Shown piece after piece: positions 46,320 to 56,138 of a stretch of DNA of 64,000 bases. Position numbers and translations under genes: made by a program. Under the pieces are notes generated by a model. It did no database searches and was not told the origin of the DNA. It was given only the letters and a program-made list of their open reading frames with translations. Every line of letters starts with the position of its first letter. Positions within the stretch are counted from its first letter, which is position 1. Source of the DNA: Clostridia bacterium (GTDB lineage Bacteria; Bacillota; Clostridia; Oscillospirales; CAG-272); NCBI GenBank assembly GCA_017935065.1, contig JAGBIF010000019.1, positions 64,985 to 128,984 on the forward strand, in the 5' to 3' direction.

Positions 46320-47381
46320 ATGGATGAACAAAACAAGAAATCCAATTCTGGCGGTTTTGCTCTTGTGCTTGAGAAGCTGAAGTGGTTTTTCCTCCTCGTA
46401 TGGGGCGGAATCAAAAAGGGTATGGCCGCCTGCTGGGGTTGGATAACATCAAAGACAGGTATGTATGTCATCAAGAGACTGGGTCTTGCACTGCTTACCG
46501 TCTGGGTTGTAATTACGGTTACATTCTTCGTAATGCACGCCGTACCCGGTGGCCCGTTCAACAGCGAGAAGGCTATCACCGAGGAGGCTAAGGCGGCACT
46601 TGAGGCTAAGTACGGACTTGACCAGCCGCTTATCGTGCAGTACTTCAAATATCTTGGAGATATCGTTTTCAGATTTGATTTCGGACCTTCTCTTAAGCAG
46701 AGAGGAAGAACGGTTATGGGCGTTATCGCGGACGGTCTTGCGACCTCGGCTAAGCTCGGTGTCATAGCGGCATTCCTTGCTCTTGCGGTGGGCGTTGTGC
46801 TCGGCTCGATTGCGGCGCTCAAGCGCAACAAGCTTATCGACCGTATCATAATGGTTGTGACGACCGCATTCGTTTCGATGCCGTCGTTCATAATGGGTAC
46901 GCTACTATTGCTTGTGTTTTCGTCGATGCTGGGGTGGTTCCCCGCAAACGGCTCGGCAGACGCGGGCTTTGCGGGACTTGTGCTTCCCGTTATTACCCTT
47001 TCGCTCTATCCTACGGCGTACATCACGAGACTTACCCGCTCGTCAATGCTTGACGTTCTCGGTCAGGATTACATCCGTACCGCGAAGGCAAAGGGTGTGT
47101 CGGGCACTAAGATAATCTTCGGCCACGCGCTTAAGAACTCTCTTATCCCTGTTATTACCTACTTCGGTCCTATGCTTGCGTACATCGTTACAGGCTCGCT
47201 TGTCGTTGAGCAGATCTTCGCCGTTCCAGGTATCGGCCGCGCATTCGTAAGCAGCATAACCAACCGTGACTACCCTCTTATTATGGGTACTACTATCATA
47301 CTTTCGTTCCTCGTTGTCATTATGAACTTTGTCGGCGATATTCTCTACAAGGTTGTTGACCCGAGAATCAGTCTTGAGTAA
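46320..47381 (+). CDS. oppB: Oligopeptide ABC transporter permease
   Basis: 353 aa with the OppB/DppB N-terminus YVIKRLGLALLTVWVVITVTFFVMHAVPGGP and motif IRTAKAKG. An alternative start at 46461 would remove a ~47-aa N-terminal extension. Confidence 0.85.
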   Translation: MDEQNKKSNSGGFALVLEKLKWFFLLVWGGIKKGMAACWGWITSKTGMYVIKRLGLALLTVWVVITVTFFVMHAVPGGPFNSEKAITEEAKAALEAKYGLDQPLIVQYFKYLGDIVFRFDFGPSLKQRGRTVMGVIADGLATSAKLGVIAAFLALAVGVVLGSIAALKRNKLIDRIIMVVTTAFVSMPSFIMGTLLLLVFSSMLGWFPANGSADAGFAGLVLPVITLSLYPTAYITRLTRSSMLDVLGQDYIRTAKAKGVSGTKIIFGHALKNSLIPVITYFGPMLAYIVTGSLVVEQIFAVPGIGRAFVSSITNRDYPLIMGTTIILSFLVVIMNFVGDILYKVVDPRISLE

Positions 47382-47401: not shown

Positions 47402-48832
47402 GTGAAAAAGAAGTTTCCTACTATGCACGTGGATCTCGATTGCTTTATGCCCGCGGATCCCAAGGACAAGGAATACATGGTTAAAATGCGTCCCTCCTCT
47501 ACCTTCTTCAAGGACGGCGTAAAAAGACTTATAAAGAACAAGATTGCATTCGTTTCCTTCGTAATTATCGTATTTATCACGCTTTCGGCTATATTTATTC
47601 CGCTTTTCTGGCCCTACGGCTACGAGCAGCAGCTCGGTGTCAAGCTCGGCAAGCCTGTCGATCCCACCTACTCGAACCTCGCTCCGTTTGAATACGGAAG
47701 AAGCGAGAGAGCGAAGATCTACGGCAAGGCAAGCTTCCATCAGGTATTTTACGATGCTCCCGTCTTTGCGGTTTATGCGGACGATGCTCAAAAGGCTGAG
47801 TTTGAGGGCAAGCGCGCAGCTGCTCTTGAGGCGGCAAATGCTATCCTCGCTTCCTACAATGCGGGCGACAAAACTCCCGTAGCATTCAAGGCACTTACGG
47901 CAAATCTTCCCGAGGGCGCTGAGTACAAGAGCCAATCGGGCATCGGCGCCGATAACAAGGATTACAGAAAAGAGACCGCCGTTCTTGAATGGCTTTGGGA
48001 GGGCAAGGGCAAGAGCGCTGCCCGTGAGGCAAACGACGCTGCAGTTATTGAGACCGACAACGGTGTATATCTGCTCTGCTTCGTCTCGCACAAGGGCGGC
48101 GAGAGCGTATTCCCCCACATCTTCGGTACCGATCAGCACGGAAGAGACTACTTCATCCGTATAGTTTACGGTACCAGAATTTCTCTTCTGGTTGGCTTCT
48201 TCGCTTCTATTATCGTTCTTATTATCGGTCTTACCGTAGGCTCTATCTCGGGCTACTGCGGCGGTAAGGTTGACCTTATCATAATGAGAATAGTAGATAT
48301 AATCTACTCGCTTCCCGATATGCTTATGGTTATTCTTCTCGCATCCGTCTTTAACGAGGTGCTGGGTGATGCGCTGTCGGGTACGTTCCTAGAAAAAATA
48401 GGTACGAATATCATATCCCTCTTCATAGTATTCGCGCTTCTGTACTGGGTATCGATGTCGCGTCTTGTAAGAGGTCAGATCCTCTCGCTTCGTGAGCAGG
48501 AATATGTGCTTGCTGCCAAGGCGGCAGGCGCAAAGGGCTCGTGGATAATCAGAAAGCACCTTATGCCCAACTGTATCTCGGTTATCGTTATTTCGACCGC
48601 CCTTCAGATACCCTCGGCAATCTTTACAGAGAGCTATCTTTCCTTCCTCGGCCTCGGTGTTAACGCACCTATGCCGTCGCTCGGCTCGCTTGCGTCGGAT
48701 GCGCTCAACGGTATCAACTCCTATTCCTACAGACTTATCATTCCCGCAATAGTTATTTCGCTTATAGTGCTTGCGCTCAACCTTCTCGGCGACGGTCTGC
48801 GCGATGCCTTCGACCCCAAGCTTAATGGTTAA
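47402..48832 (+). CDS. oppC: Oligopeptide ABC transporter permease with a ~170-aa extracytoplasmic insertion
   Basis: GTG start after GGAG. TM1 occupies aa ~48-70. The OppC hallmark FGTDQHGRDY appears only at aa ~241, against about 25 aa after TM1 in E. coli OppC. The core motifs REQEYVLAAKAAGA follow. Confidence 0.85.
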   Translation: MKKKFPTMHVDLDCFMPADPKDKEYMVKMRPSSTFFKDGVKRLIKNKIAFVSFVIIVFITLSAIFIPLFWPYGYEQQLGVKLGKPVDPTYSNLAPFEYGRSERAKIYGKASFHQVFYDAPVFAVYADDAQKAEFEGKRAAALEAANAILASYNAGDKTPVAFKALTANLPEGAEYKSQSGIGADNKDYRKETAVLEWLWEGKGKSAAREANDAAVIETDNGVYLLCFVSHKGGESVFPHIFGTDQHGRDYFIRIVYGTRISLLVGFFASIIVLIIGLTVGSISGYCGGKVDLIIMRIVDIIYSLPDMLMVILLASVFNEVLGDALSGTFLEKIGTNIISLFIVFALLYWVSMSRLVRGQILSLREQEYVLAAKAAGAKGSWIIRKHLMPNCISVIVISTALQIPSAIFTESYLSFLGLGVNAPMPSLGSLASDALNGINSYSYRLIIPAIVISLIVLALNLLGDGLRDAFDPKLNG

Positions 48833-48849: not shown

Positions 48850-49986
48850 ATGGCATTACTTGAAGTAAAAGATTTAAGAACCTCCTTTTTCACCGACGCG
48901 GGTGAGGTTAAGGCGGTAAACGGTGTATCCTTTAACCTTGACGAGGGTAAGGTCCTCGGTATCGTCGGCGAGAGCGGCTCGGGTAAGTCGGTTACGGCAT
49001 ACTCTATTATGCAGATACTCGCGGGTACGGGTAAAATAGTCGGCGGCTCTATCAAGTTCCGCGGCGAGGAGCTTGTAAACTCGGGTGAGGAAAAGATGAA
49101 AACGATAAGAGGCAACAAGATCTCTATCATCTTCCAGGACCCTATGACCTCGCTCAACCCCACCTACACCATAGGCCACCAGCTTATGGAAGCAATTCTT
49201 CTTCATACCAACAGAAACAAAGAAGAGGCTTGGGACAGAGCGGTTGAGATGCTTAAGCTCGTTAATGTAAACGAGCCCGAAAAGCGTATGAAGCAGTATC
49301 CCTTCGAGTTCTCGGGCGGTATGCGTCAGAGAGTTATGATCGCTATGGCGCTTGCCTGCGAGCCTGATATTCTTATCGCTGACGAGCCTACAACGGCGCT
49401 TGACGTTACTATCCAGGCACAGATACTTGACCTTATGTCAAGCCTTCAGAGGGAGCTTGGAATGGCTATTATAATGATAACCCACGACCTCGGTGTCGTA
49501 GCGCAGATGTGCGACGAGGTTATCGTTATGTACGCGGGCTCTATCTGTGAGCAGGGTACGGCAGACGAGATTTTCTACAATCCCTCTCACGAATATACCA
49601 AGGGACTTATGCGTTCTATCCCCTCTACTACCTCGGCAGGAAAGAAGCTTCAGCCTATTACGGGTACTCCGATAGACCTTCTCAATATGCCTAAGGGCTG
49701 TCCCTTTGCTCCTAGATGCGACGCGGCTATGAAGATATGTATTCACGAGCGCGCGCCCAGAATTCAGATAAACGACTGCCATCAAGCGGCGTGCTGGATG
49801 AACGAAAAGAAGATAGTTGAGGCGGCTTACGCAAACGGTGACGCCGAGGTTGACGCTATGGAATGCCTGCTTAAGGCAGAGTTCCGCGAGGATGCGCCTG
49901 CGGCAGATGAGACTGCTGACTGCAAGACAAGTGAGACAGCGGTGGCAGAAAACGAGACAAATAACGGTGAGGGAGGCAATGAGTAA
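48850..49986 (+). CDS. oppD: Oligopeptide ABC transporter ATP-binding protein with an acidic C-terminal tail
   Basis: Walker A GESGSGKS, signature FSGGMRQR and Walker [12 protein letters not shown]. The oligopeptide C-terminal domain (GCPFAPRC) is followed by a ~55-aa Asp/Glu/Ala-rich tail. Confidence 0.88.
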
Positions 49987-50975
49987 TGAGCGAGAATAAG
50001 AACGACATACTCGTAGAGGTCAAGGGACTGAAGAAGTACTTTGACATTGCGATAAACGCCTTCCAGACGAAGCCTCTTAAGGCGGTAGACAACGTATCCT
50101 TCTTTATCAAGCGCGGTGAGACGCTCGGTCTTGTCGGTGAGTCGGGATGCGGAAAGACCACCGTAGGAAGAACGCTTCTTCAGCTTTACAAGCCTACTGA
50201 CGGTGAGATTATTTACGACGGCAAGCCCATCGTAACCAAGGAGGACCTTCAGGACTTCCGCAAGAAGGCAACGATGGTTTTCCAGGACCCCTACTCCTCT
50301 CTTAACCCCAGAATGACGGTTGCCGATATTATCGGTGAGCCGCTTGACATTCACGGTCTTTACGCAACAAAGGAAGAGCGTCAGGCGAGAATTCTTGAGC
50401 TTATGGACCACGTAGGTCTTAACTCCGAGCATGCGGCAAGATACGCGCACGAGTTCTCGGGCGGTCAGAGACAGAGAATAGGTATTGCGAGAGCGCTTGC
50501 GGTAAACCCCGAGTTTATCGTATGTGACGAGCCTGTATCGGCACTTGACGTTTCAATTCAGGCGCAGGTTATCAACATGTTTGACGAGCTTCAGGAAAAG
50601 CTTGGTCTGACCTACCTCTTTATCGCGCACGACCTTCTCGTCGTACGCCACATCAGTGACAGAATTGCCGTAATGTATCTCGGTAAGATGGTTGAGCTTG
50701 CTCCCTCCGATGAGATCTGCGACAGACCTCTGCACCCCTACACAAAGGCGCTTATGTCCTCGGTTCCTATGCCCGACCCCAAGGTCGCAAGAGAGAACAA
50801 GAGAATTACCCTCTCGGGTGATATTCCCTCGCCTCTCAACGCCCCCTCAGGCTGTCCCTTCCGCACAAGATGTCCCTATGCTACGGATATGTGCGCCGAG
50901 TCGATGCCCGAGTTCCGCGAGGTAAAGGAAGGACACTTCGTTGCCTGCCACAGAGTAGACGAGATAAACGCTTAA
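49986..50975 (+). CDS. oppF: Oligopeptide ABC transporter ATP-binding protein
   Basis: Walker A GESGCGKTT, signature FSGGQRQR and Walker B IVCDEPVSALD, plus GCPFRTRCP. The start overlaps the oppD stop (TAATG). Confidence 0.9.
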   Translation: MSENKNDILVEVKGLKKYFDIAINAFQTKPLKAVDNVSFFIKRGETLGLVGESGCGKTTVGRTLLQLYKPTDGEIIYDGKPIVTKEDLQDFRKKATMVFQDPYSSLNPRMTVADIIGEPLDIHGLYATKEERQARILELMDHVGLNSEHAARYAHEFSGGQRQRIGIARALAVNPEFIVCDEPVSALDVSIQAQVINMFDELQEKLGLTYLFIAHDLLVVRHISDRIAVMYLGKMVELAPSDEICDRPLHPYTKALMSSVPMPDPKVARENKRITLSGDIPSPLNAPSGCPFRTRCPYATDMCAESMPEFREVKEGHFVACHRVDEINA

Positions 50976-51090
50976 TACTCTCCCCCCCTGTTCGTATATA
51001 CGTAGGGATGCGGTGTGCAATACGTATTCCCTCGCGTATTTCGATATAGAAATACCTTTAAATCAAAAAATTTGAAAGGAAAGAAACACA

Positions 51091-52866
51091 ATGAAAAAGC
51101 TTTTAGCTGCTATACTTCTCGTTGTAATGGTATTCTGCTTCGCATCCTGCGGCGGCGTTACCAAGTCTGAGGCTCCTACTCTTGACTATCTTTACAACAC
51201 CAACGAGGGTCACAAGGCTATCGGTGAGTACATCCAGAGTGCGCTTGCTGCAGCTGACCTCAACGTAACTCTTACCAACCAGGAATGGAACACCTTCCTT
51301 AACACCCGTAAGGACGGCGACTACACCGTTGCTCGTAACGGTTGGCTTGCTGACTACTCGGATCCCATCTCCTTCCTTGATATGTGGACCTCGAACTCGG
51401 GTAACAACGACGCTCAGTTCGGTAAGGGCGCTCACAAGGATCTCAAGATGTACAATCTTGACCTCACCGATCTTGGCTACGATGTAAACGTTAAGAACGG
51501 TACCTGGGCAGAGACCTACGATGTTCTTATCGCTAAGATCAAGGCTTGCACCGACACCAACGTTCGTTACAAGCTCATGCACAAGGCTGAGGATATGATC
51601 ATGGATACCGGATGCCTTATTCCCCTTTACTACTACACCGACATCTTTATGATCGACGATGCAGTAAACGGTTTCTTCGCTAACCCCCTTGGCTACAAGT
51701 ACTTCATGTACACCACCATCGAGGGCAAGAACAGCATCAACGTATGCCTTTCCTCTGAGCCTGACACAATCGACCCCGCTCTTAACTCTGCAGTAGACGG
51801 CGCAACTATGCTTGCTCACCTCTTCCAGGGTCTTGCTAAGTGGAGCCAGAAGGCTGACGGAACTCTTGAGATCGTTGCTGATGCTGCCACCGCTCTCCCC
51901 GAGGGTGTTGTAAATGCTGACGGTACCGTAACCTACACCTACACTCTTCGTGACGGCCTTAAGTGGTCCAACGGCGATGATGTTAAGGCTTCTGACTTCG
52001 AGTACTCCTGGAAGAGAGCAGCTTCTAACGCACTCGCTGCTGACTACGGCTACATGTTCGAGGTTGTTAAGGGCTACGGCGAGGACGACGAGAACGGTCT
52101 TTCCAAGATCTCTGTAGTTGCAGACGATGCTGCTAAGACCCTTACCGTTACTCTTGCAAACGCTGTTTCCTACTGGAACGAGCTTCTTGCATTCCCCACC
52201 TACTATCCCGTACACAAGGCTACCGTAGCTTCTGAGTCTTGGGCAACCGAGGCTGCTACCTATGTATGCAACGGTCCTTACACCATCTCCGCTTGGGATC
52301 ACAACAGCTGCATCACTCTTACCAAGAACGCTAACTTCGTAGATGCTGCTAAGATCACCATGCCCGAGATCAAGTGCTTCCTTTCTGATGATGCTAACAA
52401 CATGCTCACCAACTTCAAGAACGGCACTTGGCAGCTTATCGATGATGTACCTACCAACGAGATCAAGAACCTTGAGGCTCAGTATCCTACCGAGTACAAG
52501 GTAACCGGTCAGATCGGTACTTACTATGTAAACTTCAACATCAACGCAGACCTTCTTCCCAACAACACCGAGCTTACCGGCGTTGAGAAGGAAAAGGCTC
52601 AGCAGGAGATCCGTAAGGCAATCGGCCTTCTCCTTGACCGTAACTACATCTGTGAGGAAATCGGTCAGGCAGGTCAGGTTCCCGCTCCTGCATTCGTACC
52701 CATGGGTATGACTGATCCTGAGACCGGCGACGAGTTCTACAAGAACACCGGCTTCAGCGACAAGTTCGACGGCTACTACGATGTATCTGAGGATGCTTAC
52801 GAGGCTAACGTTGACGCAGCTATCAAGACTCTTCAGAAGTACTACACCATCGAGATCGCTGAGTAA
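51091..52866 (+). CDS. oppA: Family-5 (OppA/DppA-type) substrate-binding lipoprotein with circularly permuted segment order
   Basis: Lipobox FASC. Residues ~30-210 match the usual C-terminal third of DppA/OppA (NGWLADYSDPISFLDMW ... LIPLYY). Residues ~215-560 match the usual N-terminal two thirds (SSEPDTIDPA ... TYTLRDGLKWSNGDDVKASDFEYSWKR ... GPYTISAW ... YYVNFN ... IRKAIGLLLDRN). Confidence 0.8.
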   Translation: MKKLLAAILLVVMVFCFASCGGVTKSEAPTLDYLYNTNEGHKAIGEYIQSALAAADLNVTLTNQEWNTFLNTRKDGDYTVARNGWLADYSDPISFLDMWTSNSGNNDAQFGKGAHKDLKMYNLDLTDLGYDVNVKNGTWAETYDVLIAKIKACTDTNVRYKLMHKAEDMIMDTGCLIPLYYYTDIFMIDDAVNGFFANPLGYKYFMYTTIEGKNSINVCLSSEPDTIDPALNSAVDGATMLAHLFQGLAKWSQKADGTLEIVADAATALPEGVVNADGTVTYTYTLRDGLKWSNGDDVKASDFEYSWKRAASNALAADYGYMFEVVKGYGEDDENGLSKISVVADDAAKTLTVTLANAVSYWNELLAFPTYYPVHKATVASESWATEAATYVCNGPYTISAWDHNSCITLTKNANFVDAAKITMPEIKCFLSDDANNMLTNFKNGTWQLIDDVPTNEIKNLEAQYPTEYKVTGQIGTYYVNFNINADLLPNNTELTGVEKEKAQQEIRKAIGLLLDRNYICEEIGQAGQVPAPAFVPMGMTDPETGDEFYKNTGFSDKFDGYYDVSEDAYEANVDAAIKTLQKYYTIEIAE

Positions 52867-52950: not shown

Positions 52951-52999
52951 GCGGGCAACTGCCTCCCCTCTTGGGGTTGCAGTTGCCCGCCTCTTTTTT
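52951..52999 (+). terminator. Rho-independent terminator of the opp operon
   Basis: 12-bp arms gcgggcaactgc / gcagttgcccgc followed by ctctttttta. Confidence 0.8.
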
Positions 53000-53170: not shown

Positions 53171-53983
53171 CTACGCAAGCCTGTCGGTGTACTCCTTAAG
53201 TCTTTGGCGAAGTGCCTCCTCGGTGCTGCTGCTTACGATATTAATAAGCTCTCTGTGACACAGGAACAGCTCGCTGTCGGAAAGCTCCATTGAGCCAAGC
53301 TTGGTATAATCCGCCATAAGCCTCAGCATAATATCCGTCTTATTAAATGTGTGAATTCTATCGCCAAGGGACTTAAGTAGCATCATATGGATATTGCCGC
53401 CTGCAAGAGTTCTGAGACACATAGGGACACCCCGTCTTTGGTTTTCCTCGCGGTAATCGCGGTATACTCTGACAAGGGCGATAAGCTCCTGCGGTATTGT
53501 GGATATGCTTGTCAGGTCCTTAACAAGCTCGGGGACAGTAAGAGACATAGTTCTGTAGCATAGCTCCATGCATATCCTTGCCACCTCGGTTACGGCAGGG
53601 TCGGGACTTCCCTTTATAAGCGCATTTACCCTGTCTAAATCCCAGAGAAGCCTCACTTTACCGCGCCCGTCAAGCGTTGCTATACCGAAGGACCTAAGCA
53701 GGTCAAGCTCATACGAGCGCTCGGTGTCAACAGTAAGTCCCTCCATTACATTCTTTATATACCTTACGGCATCGGGGCTTAAGGTTGATTTTATAGCTAC
53801 CAGCTCATAATCAAGCGCCATATCGGCAAGCGCCTCGGGGCTACGAAGCCTCATTATAGGCTGGGTCCCCTCAAGAGATGCCTTTATAGCCTTTGCCTCG
53901 GTATAGGAAACACCCAGCTTTACCTGAATTTCGGCAGTTCCCGCCCCGGGGGTGAGGCAGGACAAATCTCTCTTCTCACTCAT
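53171..53983 (-). CDS. Hypothetical protein (270 aa), last gene of the VirD4-like operon
   Basis: The ORF overlaps the upstream gene by 4 nt (ATGA). It is predicted to be helical and cytoplasmic. No motif was recognised. Confidence 0.6.
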   Translation of the reverse strand: MSEKRDLSCLTPGAGTAEIQVKLGVSYTEAKAIKASLEGTQPIMRLRSPEALADMALDYELVAIKSTLSPDAVRYIKNVMEGLTVDTERSYELDLLRSFGIATLDGRGKVRLLWDLDRVNALIKGSPDPAVTEVARICMELCYRTMSLTVPELVKDLTSISTIPQELIALVRVYRDYREENQRRGVPMCLRTLAGGNIHMMLLKSLGDRIHTFNKTDIMLRLMADYTKLGSMELSDSELFLCHRELINIVSSSTEEALRQRLKEYTDRLA

Positions 53984-54453
53984 TTTGAATTCTTTATGTA
54001 TTCAAGCATCTCGCTATCTATGAGTGGATATACCTTGTCGTTCAAGAGGTATGCAACGCCTGCTGTGCAGAGCTGAGTTGCGTGCATTTTGCCAAGCGTG
54101 GGAATTCTTGCCTCTATTATAGTATTTATCTCAAGGTAGGTAAGCGAGCCACGCTCCACCAGCTCCTCAATGAGCTTTATATTAAGCTTCTTCATCCTTA
54201 CATTCTTAACAAAGCTCGCGCGCTTTGCCGCGGAAAGCTTTATCGGGGGCATCATATCGTGATTTACACGAAGAGCGCCCTCGGATGTGAAGAACCAGCC
54301 GCGATCCTTGAAAAAGCTAATCAGATCGCGTGTAAGGGTGTAGGTAAGCTTAAGCTCATACTGAAGCTCAGGCAGGGATATCACAAGCTTATCCGCGCAA
54401 TAATCAAGAATTCTTTTTACATTTTCAATTGCTACCATATAATCACCTGTCAA
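53980..54453 (-). CDS. Small protein with two winged-helix-like units (FtsK-gamma-like pattern)
   Basis: 157 aa. ISLPELQYELKLTYTLTRDLISFFKDRGWF..EGALRVN resembles the FtsK gamma pattern (S..QR.L.IGY.RAAR.I..ME..G.V). The second unit is LIEELVERGSLTYLEINTII. It has 4-nt overlaps with both neighbours. Confidence 0.5.
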   Translation of the reverse strand: MTGDYMVAIENVKRILDYCADKLVISLPELQYELKLTYTLTRDLISFFKDRGWFFTSEGALRVNHDMMPPIKLSAAKRASFVKNVRMKKLNIKLIEELVERGSLTYLEINTIIEARIPTLGKMHATQLCTAGVAYLLNDKVYPLIDSEMLEYIKNSK

Positions 54454-56123
54454 TCAAAGTTTGCACGTGTGCTTTTAGGTACGTATTCGTATTTCGGATC
54501 CCCCAGAATAAAGTCGCTCTCGTAGACGTACGGCGGCTTGTTATCCTTGGAAAGCTCGGGGCACATATAGTATCTTTCGAGGCGCGACCAGGTAACGTCC
54601 GAGTTCATTCTCGTAATGATGCACTCGCCTACCGCAAGGCAGGAAAGCGTGCTTACGGGAATTACGGGTATGGTTTCCTTCTGGTACTGAGCGATATGCT
54701 CACCCTCGCCGTTGACCGCGGACATAGCCGAGTATATCGTATGCTCTCCGCACTCGTGTGAAAACTCCTTCTTCGTCTCGGGGTTATTAGTGCCGAGGAA
54801 TACGTGCATATTAAGGTTATCCTTTATTATCTTCGCGTTGTTCTGTCCGTATACGTTATCAAGCTGGGCATAGGACTGTATAATCAGCCAGAACCAGATG
54901 TTACGTCCTCCGCAGGCGGTAATTACGCTGTCAAAGTCATTGAACTTTGGCATATTTCCGAACTCGTCAAGCACGAAGTAGAAGGGACTTTTTCTGGGAC
55001 GGTTGCCATTTTGCCTTGTCATATTGATAAGGTTTTTGTAAAGGTCGGTGAGGAAAAGTCCGATAATATCATAGTAAAGCTTGGTCTCGTCCTTCATCGC
55101 GATAAACACGGCACAGGGCTGCTTATCATCGTCGAAGTCGGAAAAGCTGAAGGTGTTGGCGCAGGTTATCTGTCTTATCGCACCGTCGTTTATCTTCGTC
55201 ATAGCGGTGGCAAGGGTACTCATATAGCCGTCCTTTGTCACCTCTGCCTTGATAAACATAAATCTCTGCACCAAGCGGTAGGCAATAGAGGTATTCTTGT
55301 CGCGCCTGTCAAAGTATTCATCGGTAAACGCATTATCCGCCCTGCCTATTCTGTCATATATTTCAAGAAGGGTGCTGAGCGAGAAGGTATCCCTTGTGAT
55401 GACGGTATATTTATCGCTGGGCACGCTGTCTTCGAGCATTGAGAATATAAGTCCTTTGAAAATAGAACGCGCTCCGTTCATCCAGGACGCATCCTTATCC
55501 TGTGTGGGGGGGCACATAACGTTGGAAATCTCCTCAACCCTCGCCTGCACCTCGTAAAGTATGCTCTTACGCTCGGCATTTATCGCATAGGAAAGCCGTG
55601 TGTCATCGCTATATTTCTTTCCCCTGAATACACTATAATAATTGCCGTTCTCAAGAATGGCGTCAACCTCGTCCTCAACGTGCAGGTATCTCTGATAGAG
55701 GTCAAATATAGGCGTAAAGGGGTTCCATCTGTCGGACTCCGAGGGATTGACGAAGTTCAGAAGAATAATTCTGTAGCCCTGCTCGGCAAGCGTCGGGGCA
55801 AGCGAATCAAATATCTCAAGCTTAGGGTCGGTGAATACCATACTGCACTTGTTCTTTCTCGTAGCAAGAAAGCTGCCGTAGGGTATAACGAAGGACTGTG
55901 TCTTACCCGATCTTGTCGCGCCGATGGTGAGAACGTGCGTGTCGGGGACGGTGTTTACATAGAGCTTTCCGTCCTCCTTGCGCCTTATGGAAAGAGGTGT
56001 ACCCTCTACTACCGTCTCGGGAAGCTTATCCCACGGCACCGACTCGCCAAGGTAGGAATCAAGCTCGGTATAATGCACAACTCTTGTATTTTCATAATCC
56101 TTAAATACATCAATTTTTTTCAT
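54450..56123 (-). CDS. Soluble (TM-less) VirD4/TraG-family coupling-protein-like ATPase
   Basis: The ATG at 56123 follows the RBS gaggtg. Walker A GATRSGKT in the context HVLTIGATRSGKTQSFVIPY, then FTDPKLEIF and RWNPF. Walker B is FYFVLDEFGNMPKF, followed by WLIIQSYAQLDNVYG. The N-terminal 70 aa are hydrophilic with no TM helices. Confidence 0.8.
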   Translation of the reverse strand: MKKIDVFKDYENTRVVHYTELDSYLGESVPWDKLPETVVEGTPLSIRRKEDGKLYVNTVPDTHVLTIGATRSGKTQSFVIPYGSFLATRKNKCSMVFTDPKLEIFDSLAPTLAEQGYRIILLNFVNPSESDRWNPFTPIFDLYQRYLHVEDEVDAILENGNYYSVFRGKKYSDDTRLSYAINAERKSILYEVQARVEEISNVMCPPTQDKDASWMNGARSIFKGLIFSMLEDSVPSDKYTVITRDTFSLSTLLEIYDRIGRADNAFTDEYFDRRDKNTSIAYRLVQRFMFIKAEVTKDGYMSTLATAMTKINDGAIRQITCANTFSFSDFDDDKQPCAVFIAMKDETKLYYDIIGLFLTDLYKNLINMTRQNGNRPRKSPFYFVLDEFGNMPKFNDFDSVITACGGRNIWFWLIIQSYAQLDNVYGQNNAKIIKDNLNMHVFLGTNNPETKKEFSHECGEHTIYSAMSAVNGEGEHIAQYQKETIPVIPVSTLSCLAVGECIITRMNSDVTWSRLERYYMCPELSKDNKPPYVYESDFILGDPKYEYVPKSTRANFD

Positions 56124-56138
56124 TGCCGTCACCTCACC

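Follow-up and report, generated by a model that had tools for sequence, protein, structure and literature searches.

A probable circular permutant of the OppA fold in an Oscillospirales bacterium, with other rotations among its close relatives

The DNA analyzed here, referred to as the window, is a stretch of 64,000 nucleotides from a Clostridia bacterium (GTDB lineage Bacteria; Bacillota; Clostridia; Oscillospirales; CAG-272). It corresponds to positions 64,985 to 128,984 of the forward strand of contig JAGBIF010000019.1 (NCBI GenBank assembly GCA_017935065.1). The window carries an opp operon whose last gene (51091-52866, + strand) encodes a 591-amino-acid solute-binding protein (SBP), hereafter the query. 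An earlier note, made from the letters of this DNA, had described the product as a circularly permuted OppA/DppA-type binding protein with an intact reading frame, its own ribosome-binding site and a lipoprotein signal. The open reading frame (ORF) list and the translation agree with this description: the frame is uninterrupted and holds all of the motifs listed in that note, and an RBS-like GAAAGGAAAG (51074-51083, +), read from the sequence, lies 8 nt 5' of the ATG. The lipoprotein signal peptide (51091-51150, +) ends in the lipobox F-A-S-C20. By eye, from the translation and from conservation, the N-terminus reads MKKLLAAILLVVMVFCFAS-C20-GG and has the lipobox cysteine of bacterial lipoproteins. 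C20 is invariant in 49 same-order homologues, and the AlphaFold2 (AF2) model has a helix at residues 2-18 and disorder at residues 14-22. Downstream of the gene, a GC-rich stem GCGGGCAACTGC…GCAGTTGCCCGC followed by a T-run (52951-52999, +), read from sequence alone, is a likely intrinsic terminator. The gene also contains a 399-aa antisense open frame (51103-52302, - strand), which is most likely a by-product of its extreme codon bias.

Four segments of the protein, defined by query residues, are used to describe chain order: a (26-112), b (118-210), c (213-490), and d (491-588). Canonical OppA has the order c-d-a-b, and the query has the order a-b-c-d, termed type A. Two further orders are termed type B (d-a-b-c) and type C (b-c-d-a). 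Segment a (51166-51426, +) is equivalent to canonical OppA residues ~365-454, as indicated by alignments. Segment b (51442-51720, +) is equivalent to the canonical C-terminal residues ~460-520 by alignment to the structures 8are and 8ay0. Alignments assign segment c (51727-52560, +) to the canonical N-terminal residues ~17-280. Segment d, which at the DNA level covers residues 491-591 and the stop codon (52561-52866, +), is assigned in the same way to residues ~280-355 and includes an AF2 helix at residues 567-582. The old termini are fused at 51703-51735 (+; …GYKYF-MYTTIEG-KNS-INVC…), a position set by comparison with the canonical relative P0160, and the junction carries …GYKYFMYTTIEGKNSINVC…. 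The new C-terminus lies directly behind the helix that canonically precedes segment a. Both the break point and the joined old termini sit where they had been predicted.

Rotation of the segment order is supported by three kinds of alignment. The last third of canonical OppA corresponds to query residues 26-210, and its first two-thirds correspond to residues 213-590. In phmmer searches against PDB sequences, query residues 25-112 map to residues 365-454 of Bacillus subtilis OppA (8are), residues 146-206 map to 460-520, and residues 211-550 map to 17-340. Salmonella typhimurium OppA (1b05) and DppE (8ay0) give the same kind of out-of-order pattern, with the N-terminal query pieces falling on chain positions ~351-520. 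The per-piece E-values range from 1e-41 to 1e-13, far beyond chance. In BLASTP against the canonical paralogue of the same genome, a single copy of the target yields two out-of-order high-scoring segment pairs (HSPs), and a doubled copy yields a single HSP that spans the copy boundary. This comparison, which the earlier note had proposed, shows that the query is not collinear with standard family-5 SBPs. In global alignment to the canonical-order relative P0146, the rotated query aligns over 557 positions at 67% identity, and the unrotated query aligns over only 370.

The profile databases give a similar picture. The query scores 185.3 bits against Pfam SBP_bac_5 (PF00496; cut-off 32.4) in two stretches and is a member of this family. 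Profile positions 288-367 are encoded 5' of positions 12-261 in one frame, and the collinear order of the solved members is not found. No PDB chain is continuous across the fused old termini or collinear with the query over its full length, and no NCBIfam model is collinear with any of the permuted orders. The NCBIfam OppA equivalog NF011684 scores 184 bits, well below its cut-off of 947; this model describes enterobacterial OppA, and the match is split by the permutation. No internal DNA repeats were found in the gene. From this evidence, the ORF product is judged to be a true circular permutant of the OppA/DppA (family 5, cluster C) fold, with a probability of roughly 0.88.

The predicted structure is consistent with this assignment. 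The AF2 model, built with 49 same-order sequences, is a single compact protein with a mean predicted local distance difference test score (pLDDT) of 88.5 and a predicted TM-score (pTM) of 0.86. In Foldseek, an order-dependent aligner, the top PDB matches are all OppA, DppE or MppA. Only ~390 columns are aligned of the 591 residues, with a query-normalized TM-score (TMq) of ~0.48-0.50. As a control, the model of canonical-order P0146 aligns ~560 columns to those structures with better E-values, despite a pLDDT of 73.7. After rotation of the query, three-state secondary structure agrees 93% with P0146. Fold and sequence matches are exclusively cluster C binders of peptides, nickel or opines. The breaks of all three permuted orders fall in loops between secondary-structure elements of the model.

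Canonical OppA proteins of known structure share much with the query. These include B. subtilis OppA (8are/8arn), DppE (8ay0), OppA of S. typhimurium and Escherichia coli (1b05, 1ola, 3tcf), and MppA (3o9p). They have the SBP_bac_5 domain, the predicted fold elements, five checked contact residues and oppBCDF partners in common with the query, and Gram-positive OppA is tethered as a lipoprotein in the same manner. Unlike in these proteins, the canonical C-terminal ~165 residues come first in the query, and the termini and lipid anchor are predicted to lie on the other lobe.

To collect relatives of the query, 1.84 billion 50%-identity representatives were searched exhaustively; 354 proteins were fetched and their domains mapped. 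All four rotations occur among complete proteins of normal length, mostly with a lipobox-type N-terminus. The query's order is the most frequent (165 of 354), followed by the canonical order (81), type C (31) and type B (23). In S. typhimurium OppA numbering, the chain starts at ~1 in the canonical order, ~280 in d-a-b-c, ~350 in the query and ~445 in b-c-d-a. By organism label, a-b-c-d dominates in records named Acutalibacteraceae, Clostridia, Ruminococcus sp. and Flemingiibacterium, and d-a-b-c dominates in Oscillospiraceae and Faecousia. In two proteins, P0279 and P0329, the chain is instead broken within segment c (query-equivalent ~335-380), in the region that makes up OppA domains I and II; such rotations are rarer.

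Proteins of differing order are closely related. In direct BLASTP comparisons they share 45-81% identity in both halves, with the halves swapped. The canonical P0160 and the d-a-b-c protein P0196 are 76% identical in each of the two halves, and P0311 and P0308, which also differ in order, are 62.9% and 63.1% identical. The relatives P0146 and P0160 (c-d-a-b), P0196 and P0172 (d-a-b-c), and P0208 and P0226 (b-c-d-a) come from gut Oscillospirales. Like the query, they all carry a lipoprotein signal, and they show 54-76% identity to the query or to one another over all segments. The loci of P0146 and P0196 were inspected, and both genes also occupy the slot behind oppBCDF. All six relatives are unlike the query in that their chains begin at another loop. 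The comparison goes beyond the earlier note, as the canonical order and two further rotations are found among close relatives.

The OppA-like module also occurs in other contexts. Several very long secreted proteins, including P0215 (3,278 aa), P0216 (3,366 aa), P0212, P0214, P0259, P0280, P0290 and others, end in a complete OppA-like module. The modules are in d-a-b-c, canonical or b-c-d-a order, and some of the N-termini are zinc-ribbon-like or kinase-like. These domain arrangements suggest that large surface or signalling proteins have taken up the SBP module. At one related locus (L077, 6791-8302), a 5'-truncated d-a-b-c type gene without a signal peptide adjoins clpB rather than an opp operon and is probably a pseudogene.

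The number of order changes was estimated from trees for which the four segments were extracted separately, aligned per block and concatenated in canonical order. FastTree on 299 sequences requires 21 changes of order, and IQ-TREE on 114 sequences requires 20. Sister pairs of mixed order have support of 93-100 in the Shimodaira-Hasegawa-like approximate likelihood ratio test (SH-aLRT). Approximately unbiased (AU) tests, performed on a 40-row set with a simpler model, reject monophyly of every one of the permuted orders (a-b-c-d, p = 1.8e-50; d-a-b-c, p = 1e-7; b-c-d-a, p = 3e-74). Several of the separate lineages are present in multiple independent assemblies, and lineages that share one order differ in their cut positions and linker sequences. 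On these comparisons, recurrent independent origins of the permuted orders are the favored interpretation, though held less firmly than the permutation itself.

The fused junction gives some indication of how a rotation could arise. The query linker reads F-MYTTIEG-KNS-INVC. Canonical P0160 has the C-terminal tail F-MHCTYAE followed by a stop codon, and KTS-IAVC before its first strand. The query linker matches the P0160 tail plus three pre-strand residues in length and partly in sequence, and the junction in the independent pair P0308/P0311 is built alike. This structure fits what an in-frame head-to-tail duplication would leave. The most likely route would run through an intermediate with an in-frame tandem or partial duplication, which was shortened from either end but kept its signal peptide. 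The old C- and N-termini would be joined through the ~10-residue linker. The new termini would lie in the loop following the helix that, in canonical proteins, stands ahead of the 'L-x-Y-N-T' strand (about position 350 in S. typhimurium OppA). The query would belong to a clade of gut Oscillospirales SBPs with many changes of order among four rotations.

Polypeptides with more than one SBP unit were considered as traces of such an intermediate. P0363 (1,597 aa) consists of two b-c-d-a units, and P0289 (1,238 aa) consists of two c-d-a-b units. Four proteins from several sources make up the P0363/P0261 cluster, and P0289 is found on a single contig. A third protein, P0002, is an 879-aa lipoprotein of order c-d-a-b-c, encoded at 409-3048 of L001, one 3.5-kb metagenome contig. 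The 3' portion shows 95-100% identity to type-B proteins; for the 5' portion, identity to other sequences is no more than 68-81%. P0002 is either a recombinant of canonical-order and type-B genes or the product of a chimeric contig. If it is real, recombination between differently rotated alleles gives partial duplications, which would provide a simple route to new rotations. The truncated L077 gene was also considered as a second gene of this kind, but it is merely a 5'-truncated type-B gene.

Several points weigh against a permuted fold of recurrent origin. The structural part of the argument rests on predicted models and on an aligner that depends on sequence order. No clean, recent duplication intermediate was found among the relatives: the two copies in P0363 and in P0289 are too diverged to match each other, and P0002 is a mosaic of unequal identities on a single short contig. 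The event count depends on the tree, in which many deep branches are poorly supported. Parsimony counts do not separate gain from loss, and the groups for the AU tests were drawn up with a tree already at hand. Recurrence could also be mimicked by old recombination or gene conversion among paralogues of different order. The points concerning the trees and the AU groups favor the best-surviving alternative, in which the permutation took place once or a few times long ago and the apparent recurrence reflects later recombination or gene conversion among paralogues, or error in the trees. P0002 adds to its case, as an example of a mosaic of two orders that exists in nature or results from mis-assembly. 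This alternative is nevertheless considered unlikely. Old exchange between orders does not readily account for well-supported sister pairs of different order that have equal identity in both halves, as in P0311 and P0308. The AU p-values and the different exact cuts and linkers of same-order lineages stand against it as well.

Recurrent origin can be taken one step further, to a proposal that is advanced tentatively. OppA-type receptors of gut Bacillota may be a hotspot of recurrent permutation, with at least ten separate re-openings at three surface loops (~280, ~350 and ~445). Coexisting rotated alleles would recombine into partial tandem duplications, of the c-d-a-b-c form seen in P0002, and these would resolve into further rotations. 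The lobe that bears the lipid tether may be under selection.

The query is encoded in an operon of order oppB-oppC-oppD-oppF-SBP and is its sole SBP gene. The first gene, oppB (46320-47381, +), encodes a permease with the Pfam domains BPD_transp_1 and BPD_transp_1_N. It is followed by the permease gene oppC (47402-48832, +; Pfam OppC_N and BPD_transp_1), whose product has a ~120-aa insertion at residues ~105-230. The ATPase gene oppD (48850-49986, +) was identified by a Walker A motif and oligo_HPY-type sequence in its product, and its equivalents at the related loci L082 and L083 are annotated ABC_tran and oligo_HPY. The second ATPase gene, oppF (49986-50975, +), was assigned from its translation; the C-terminus of its product matches the end of oppF 5' of the SBP gene in L001. 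Of the 80 related genome loci, 62 have an OppC gene upstream of the SBP gene. The type-B protein of L082 and the canonical protein of L083 occupy the same slot behind oppBCDF as the query.

The OppC insertion lies in the extracytoplasmic loop after the first transmembrane segment (TM1) and is missing from OppC of L083, the operon with a canonical SBP. As an adaptation to the permuted partner, the insertion was rejected: it occurs at 11 of the 40 type-A loci, at 4 of the 22 type-B loci and at neither of the 2 canonical loci, and does not track topology. In total, 15 of 64 related loci have it, whatever the chain order of their SBP.

The earlier note had also called the gene probably functional, with strong high-expression codon usage. 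Both statements agree with the present data. Compared with a 92%-identical orthologue (L002), the ratio of nonsynonymous to synonymous substitution rates (dN/dS) is 0.135; the dS of 0.37 is below saturation. The source is a fragmented metagenome-assembled genome (MAG), 75% complete, without most of the ribosomal-protein and EF-Tu reference genes. Codon bias was judged from the effective number of codons (Nc) and the correlation of relative synonymous codon usage (RSCU). The Nc of the query (29.0) is the lowest of 1,152 ORFs in the genome, below that of an EF-Tu fragment (31.0). Its codon preference deviates from the genome average in the direction of EF-Tu (r = 0.84). High expression of the gene is supported by this codon usage. 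Only one further family-5 SBP is encoded in the genome, beyond the window (contig C46, 46014-47795); it has canonical order, ~25% identity to the query and a more moderate codon bias (Nc 40.3, rank 78).

Residues that would contact the ligand are conserved. H41, W66, R82, W85 and D88 of segment a align to H371, W397, R413, W416 and D419 of S. typhimurium OppA and are invariant in 49 of 49 same-order homologues. From the structural literature on OppA, we take the S. typhimurium residues to be contacts for peptide termini and backbone. The operon slot, the purifying selection, these invariant residues, the codon bias and the confident model together make the gene look functional. The query is very probably a working membrane-tethered oligopeptide-binding lipoprotein and the receptor of the adjacent OppBCDF importer. 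Peptide would be bound in the cleft between the lobes through the conserved backbone-contact residues and handed to OppBC. Both chain ends, and hence the lipid anchor, would be on the lobe opposite to that of canonical OppA.

Alternatively, the gene could be real but no longer encode an Opp receptor, either as a decaying relic or as a protein recruited elsewhere, such as a sensor of signal peptides or an adhesin. Recruitment of OppA-family proteins as pheromone receptors is known, PrgZ is among the fold matches, and the score at the OppA equivalog is far below its cut-off. Such a change of role is improbable for the sole SBP gene of an operon, in a slot shared with canonical relatives. Strong purifying selection, invariant peptide-backbone contacts, the highest codon bias of the genome and a confident, compact model argue against it as well.

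The recovery of the same order from independent sources bears on whether the gene was assembled correctly. Among the 120 best database matches, 119 are full-length, in the same order, and 67-92% identical to the query. These same-order matches come from ENA, NCBI, JGI and Logan assemblies. More than 160 full-length same-order proteins from independent assemblies are known, and the search for orthologues with the identical permutation that the earlier note had suggested thus returned many. When a single genome was scanned for each GTDB species, at least 486 relatives came to light. Of 80 loci fetched, 50 are in the query's order, 27 are in another rotation and 3 are fragments. The 92%-identical orthologue L002 also has the query's order. 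In an even sample of 401 genomes of the order, 63 have a relative. Fourteen of these, from seven families, match continuously across the fused termini and therefore carry a permuted form. The fragmented source MAG and the possibly chimeric L001 contig leave a vanishingly small chance that two adjacent oppA copies or the reads of two strains were misjoined, against which stand the 119 best matches and the 50 named genomes of different studies that share the order, the lack of an internal repeat in the gene and of a second oppA copy near it, the intact frame with low dN/dS, the uniform and extreme codon bias, and L002. On these sequence comparisons, an artefact confined to this one assembly can in practice be excluded.

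The genomic surroundings of the operon were also inspected. A TraG/VirD4-type type IV coupling protein (T4SS-DNA_transf, TraG-D_C) is encoded directly past the opp operon at 54450-56132 (-), with unannotated ORFs at 53171-54453 (-) in between. Genes for rnfC and rnfD are found 5' of the operon. The coupling-protein gene right behind the operon, with rnfC/rnfD upstream, places the operon at the edge of a putative conjugative element. Because no close homologue of the SBP was found in the 24 other species-level genomes of the same genus, the distribution suggests that the SBP may have been acquired horizontally.

Searches of the open-access literature returned no account of circularly permuted OppA or other family-5 SBPs, and no permuted order was found in solved structures or curated family models. 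A paper on GisD, a characterised family-5 SBP of Staphylococcus aureus, makes no mention of permutation. The closest published precedent belongs to another SBP cluster. Treponema pallidum Tp0684 (MglB-2) is a natural circularly permuted ABC binding lipoprotein of 'Type Ic / Cluster Bc', and its authors raised a possible link of the permutation to membrane tethering (PMC4990184). Like the query, MglB-2 is a natural permutant of a bilobed, membrane-tethered ABC binding protein; it still binds its ligand, and homologues of the same topology occur in gut Gram-positive bacteria (PMC4990184). Unlike the query, MglB-2 is a sugar-binding cluster B protein of ~35 kDa from a different Pfam family. The query is not a member of cluster Bc and has only the principle of circular permutation in common with it. 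One permuted topology was described for MglB-2, whereas the family of the query has several rotations among close relatives.

The permutation matters for annotation, as profiles split permuted proteins into out-of-order partial matches that fall far below equivalog cut-offs. Clustering by identity likewise parts permuted proteins from their closest canonical relatives. The three loops also form a map of where the OppA fold tolerates new termini, which may be of use in engineering biosensors and domain insertions.

Few natural proteins are circular permutants, and most known cases go back to one old event each. In this family, one well-studied fold shows several rotations at 55-80% identity in the same operon slot. 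Judged from the sequences compared, the more interesting result is not the gene itself but that it is one of several apparently interconverting rotations within a single clade. The family would thus be a natural experiment on the origin of circular permutation in a secreted, lipid-anchored protein, and it would allow a direct test of whether tether position matters for docking to the permease.

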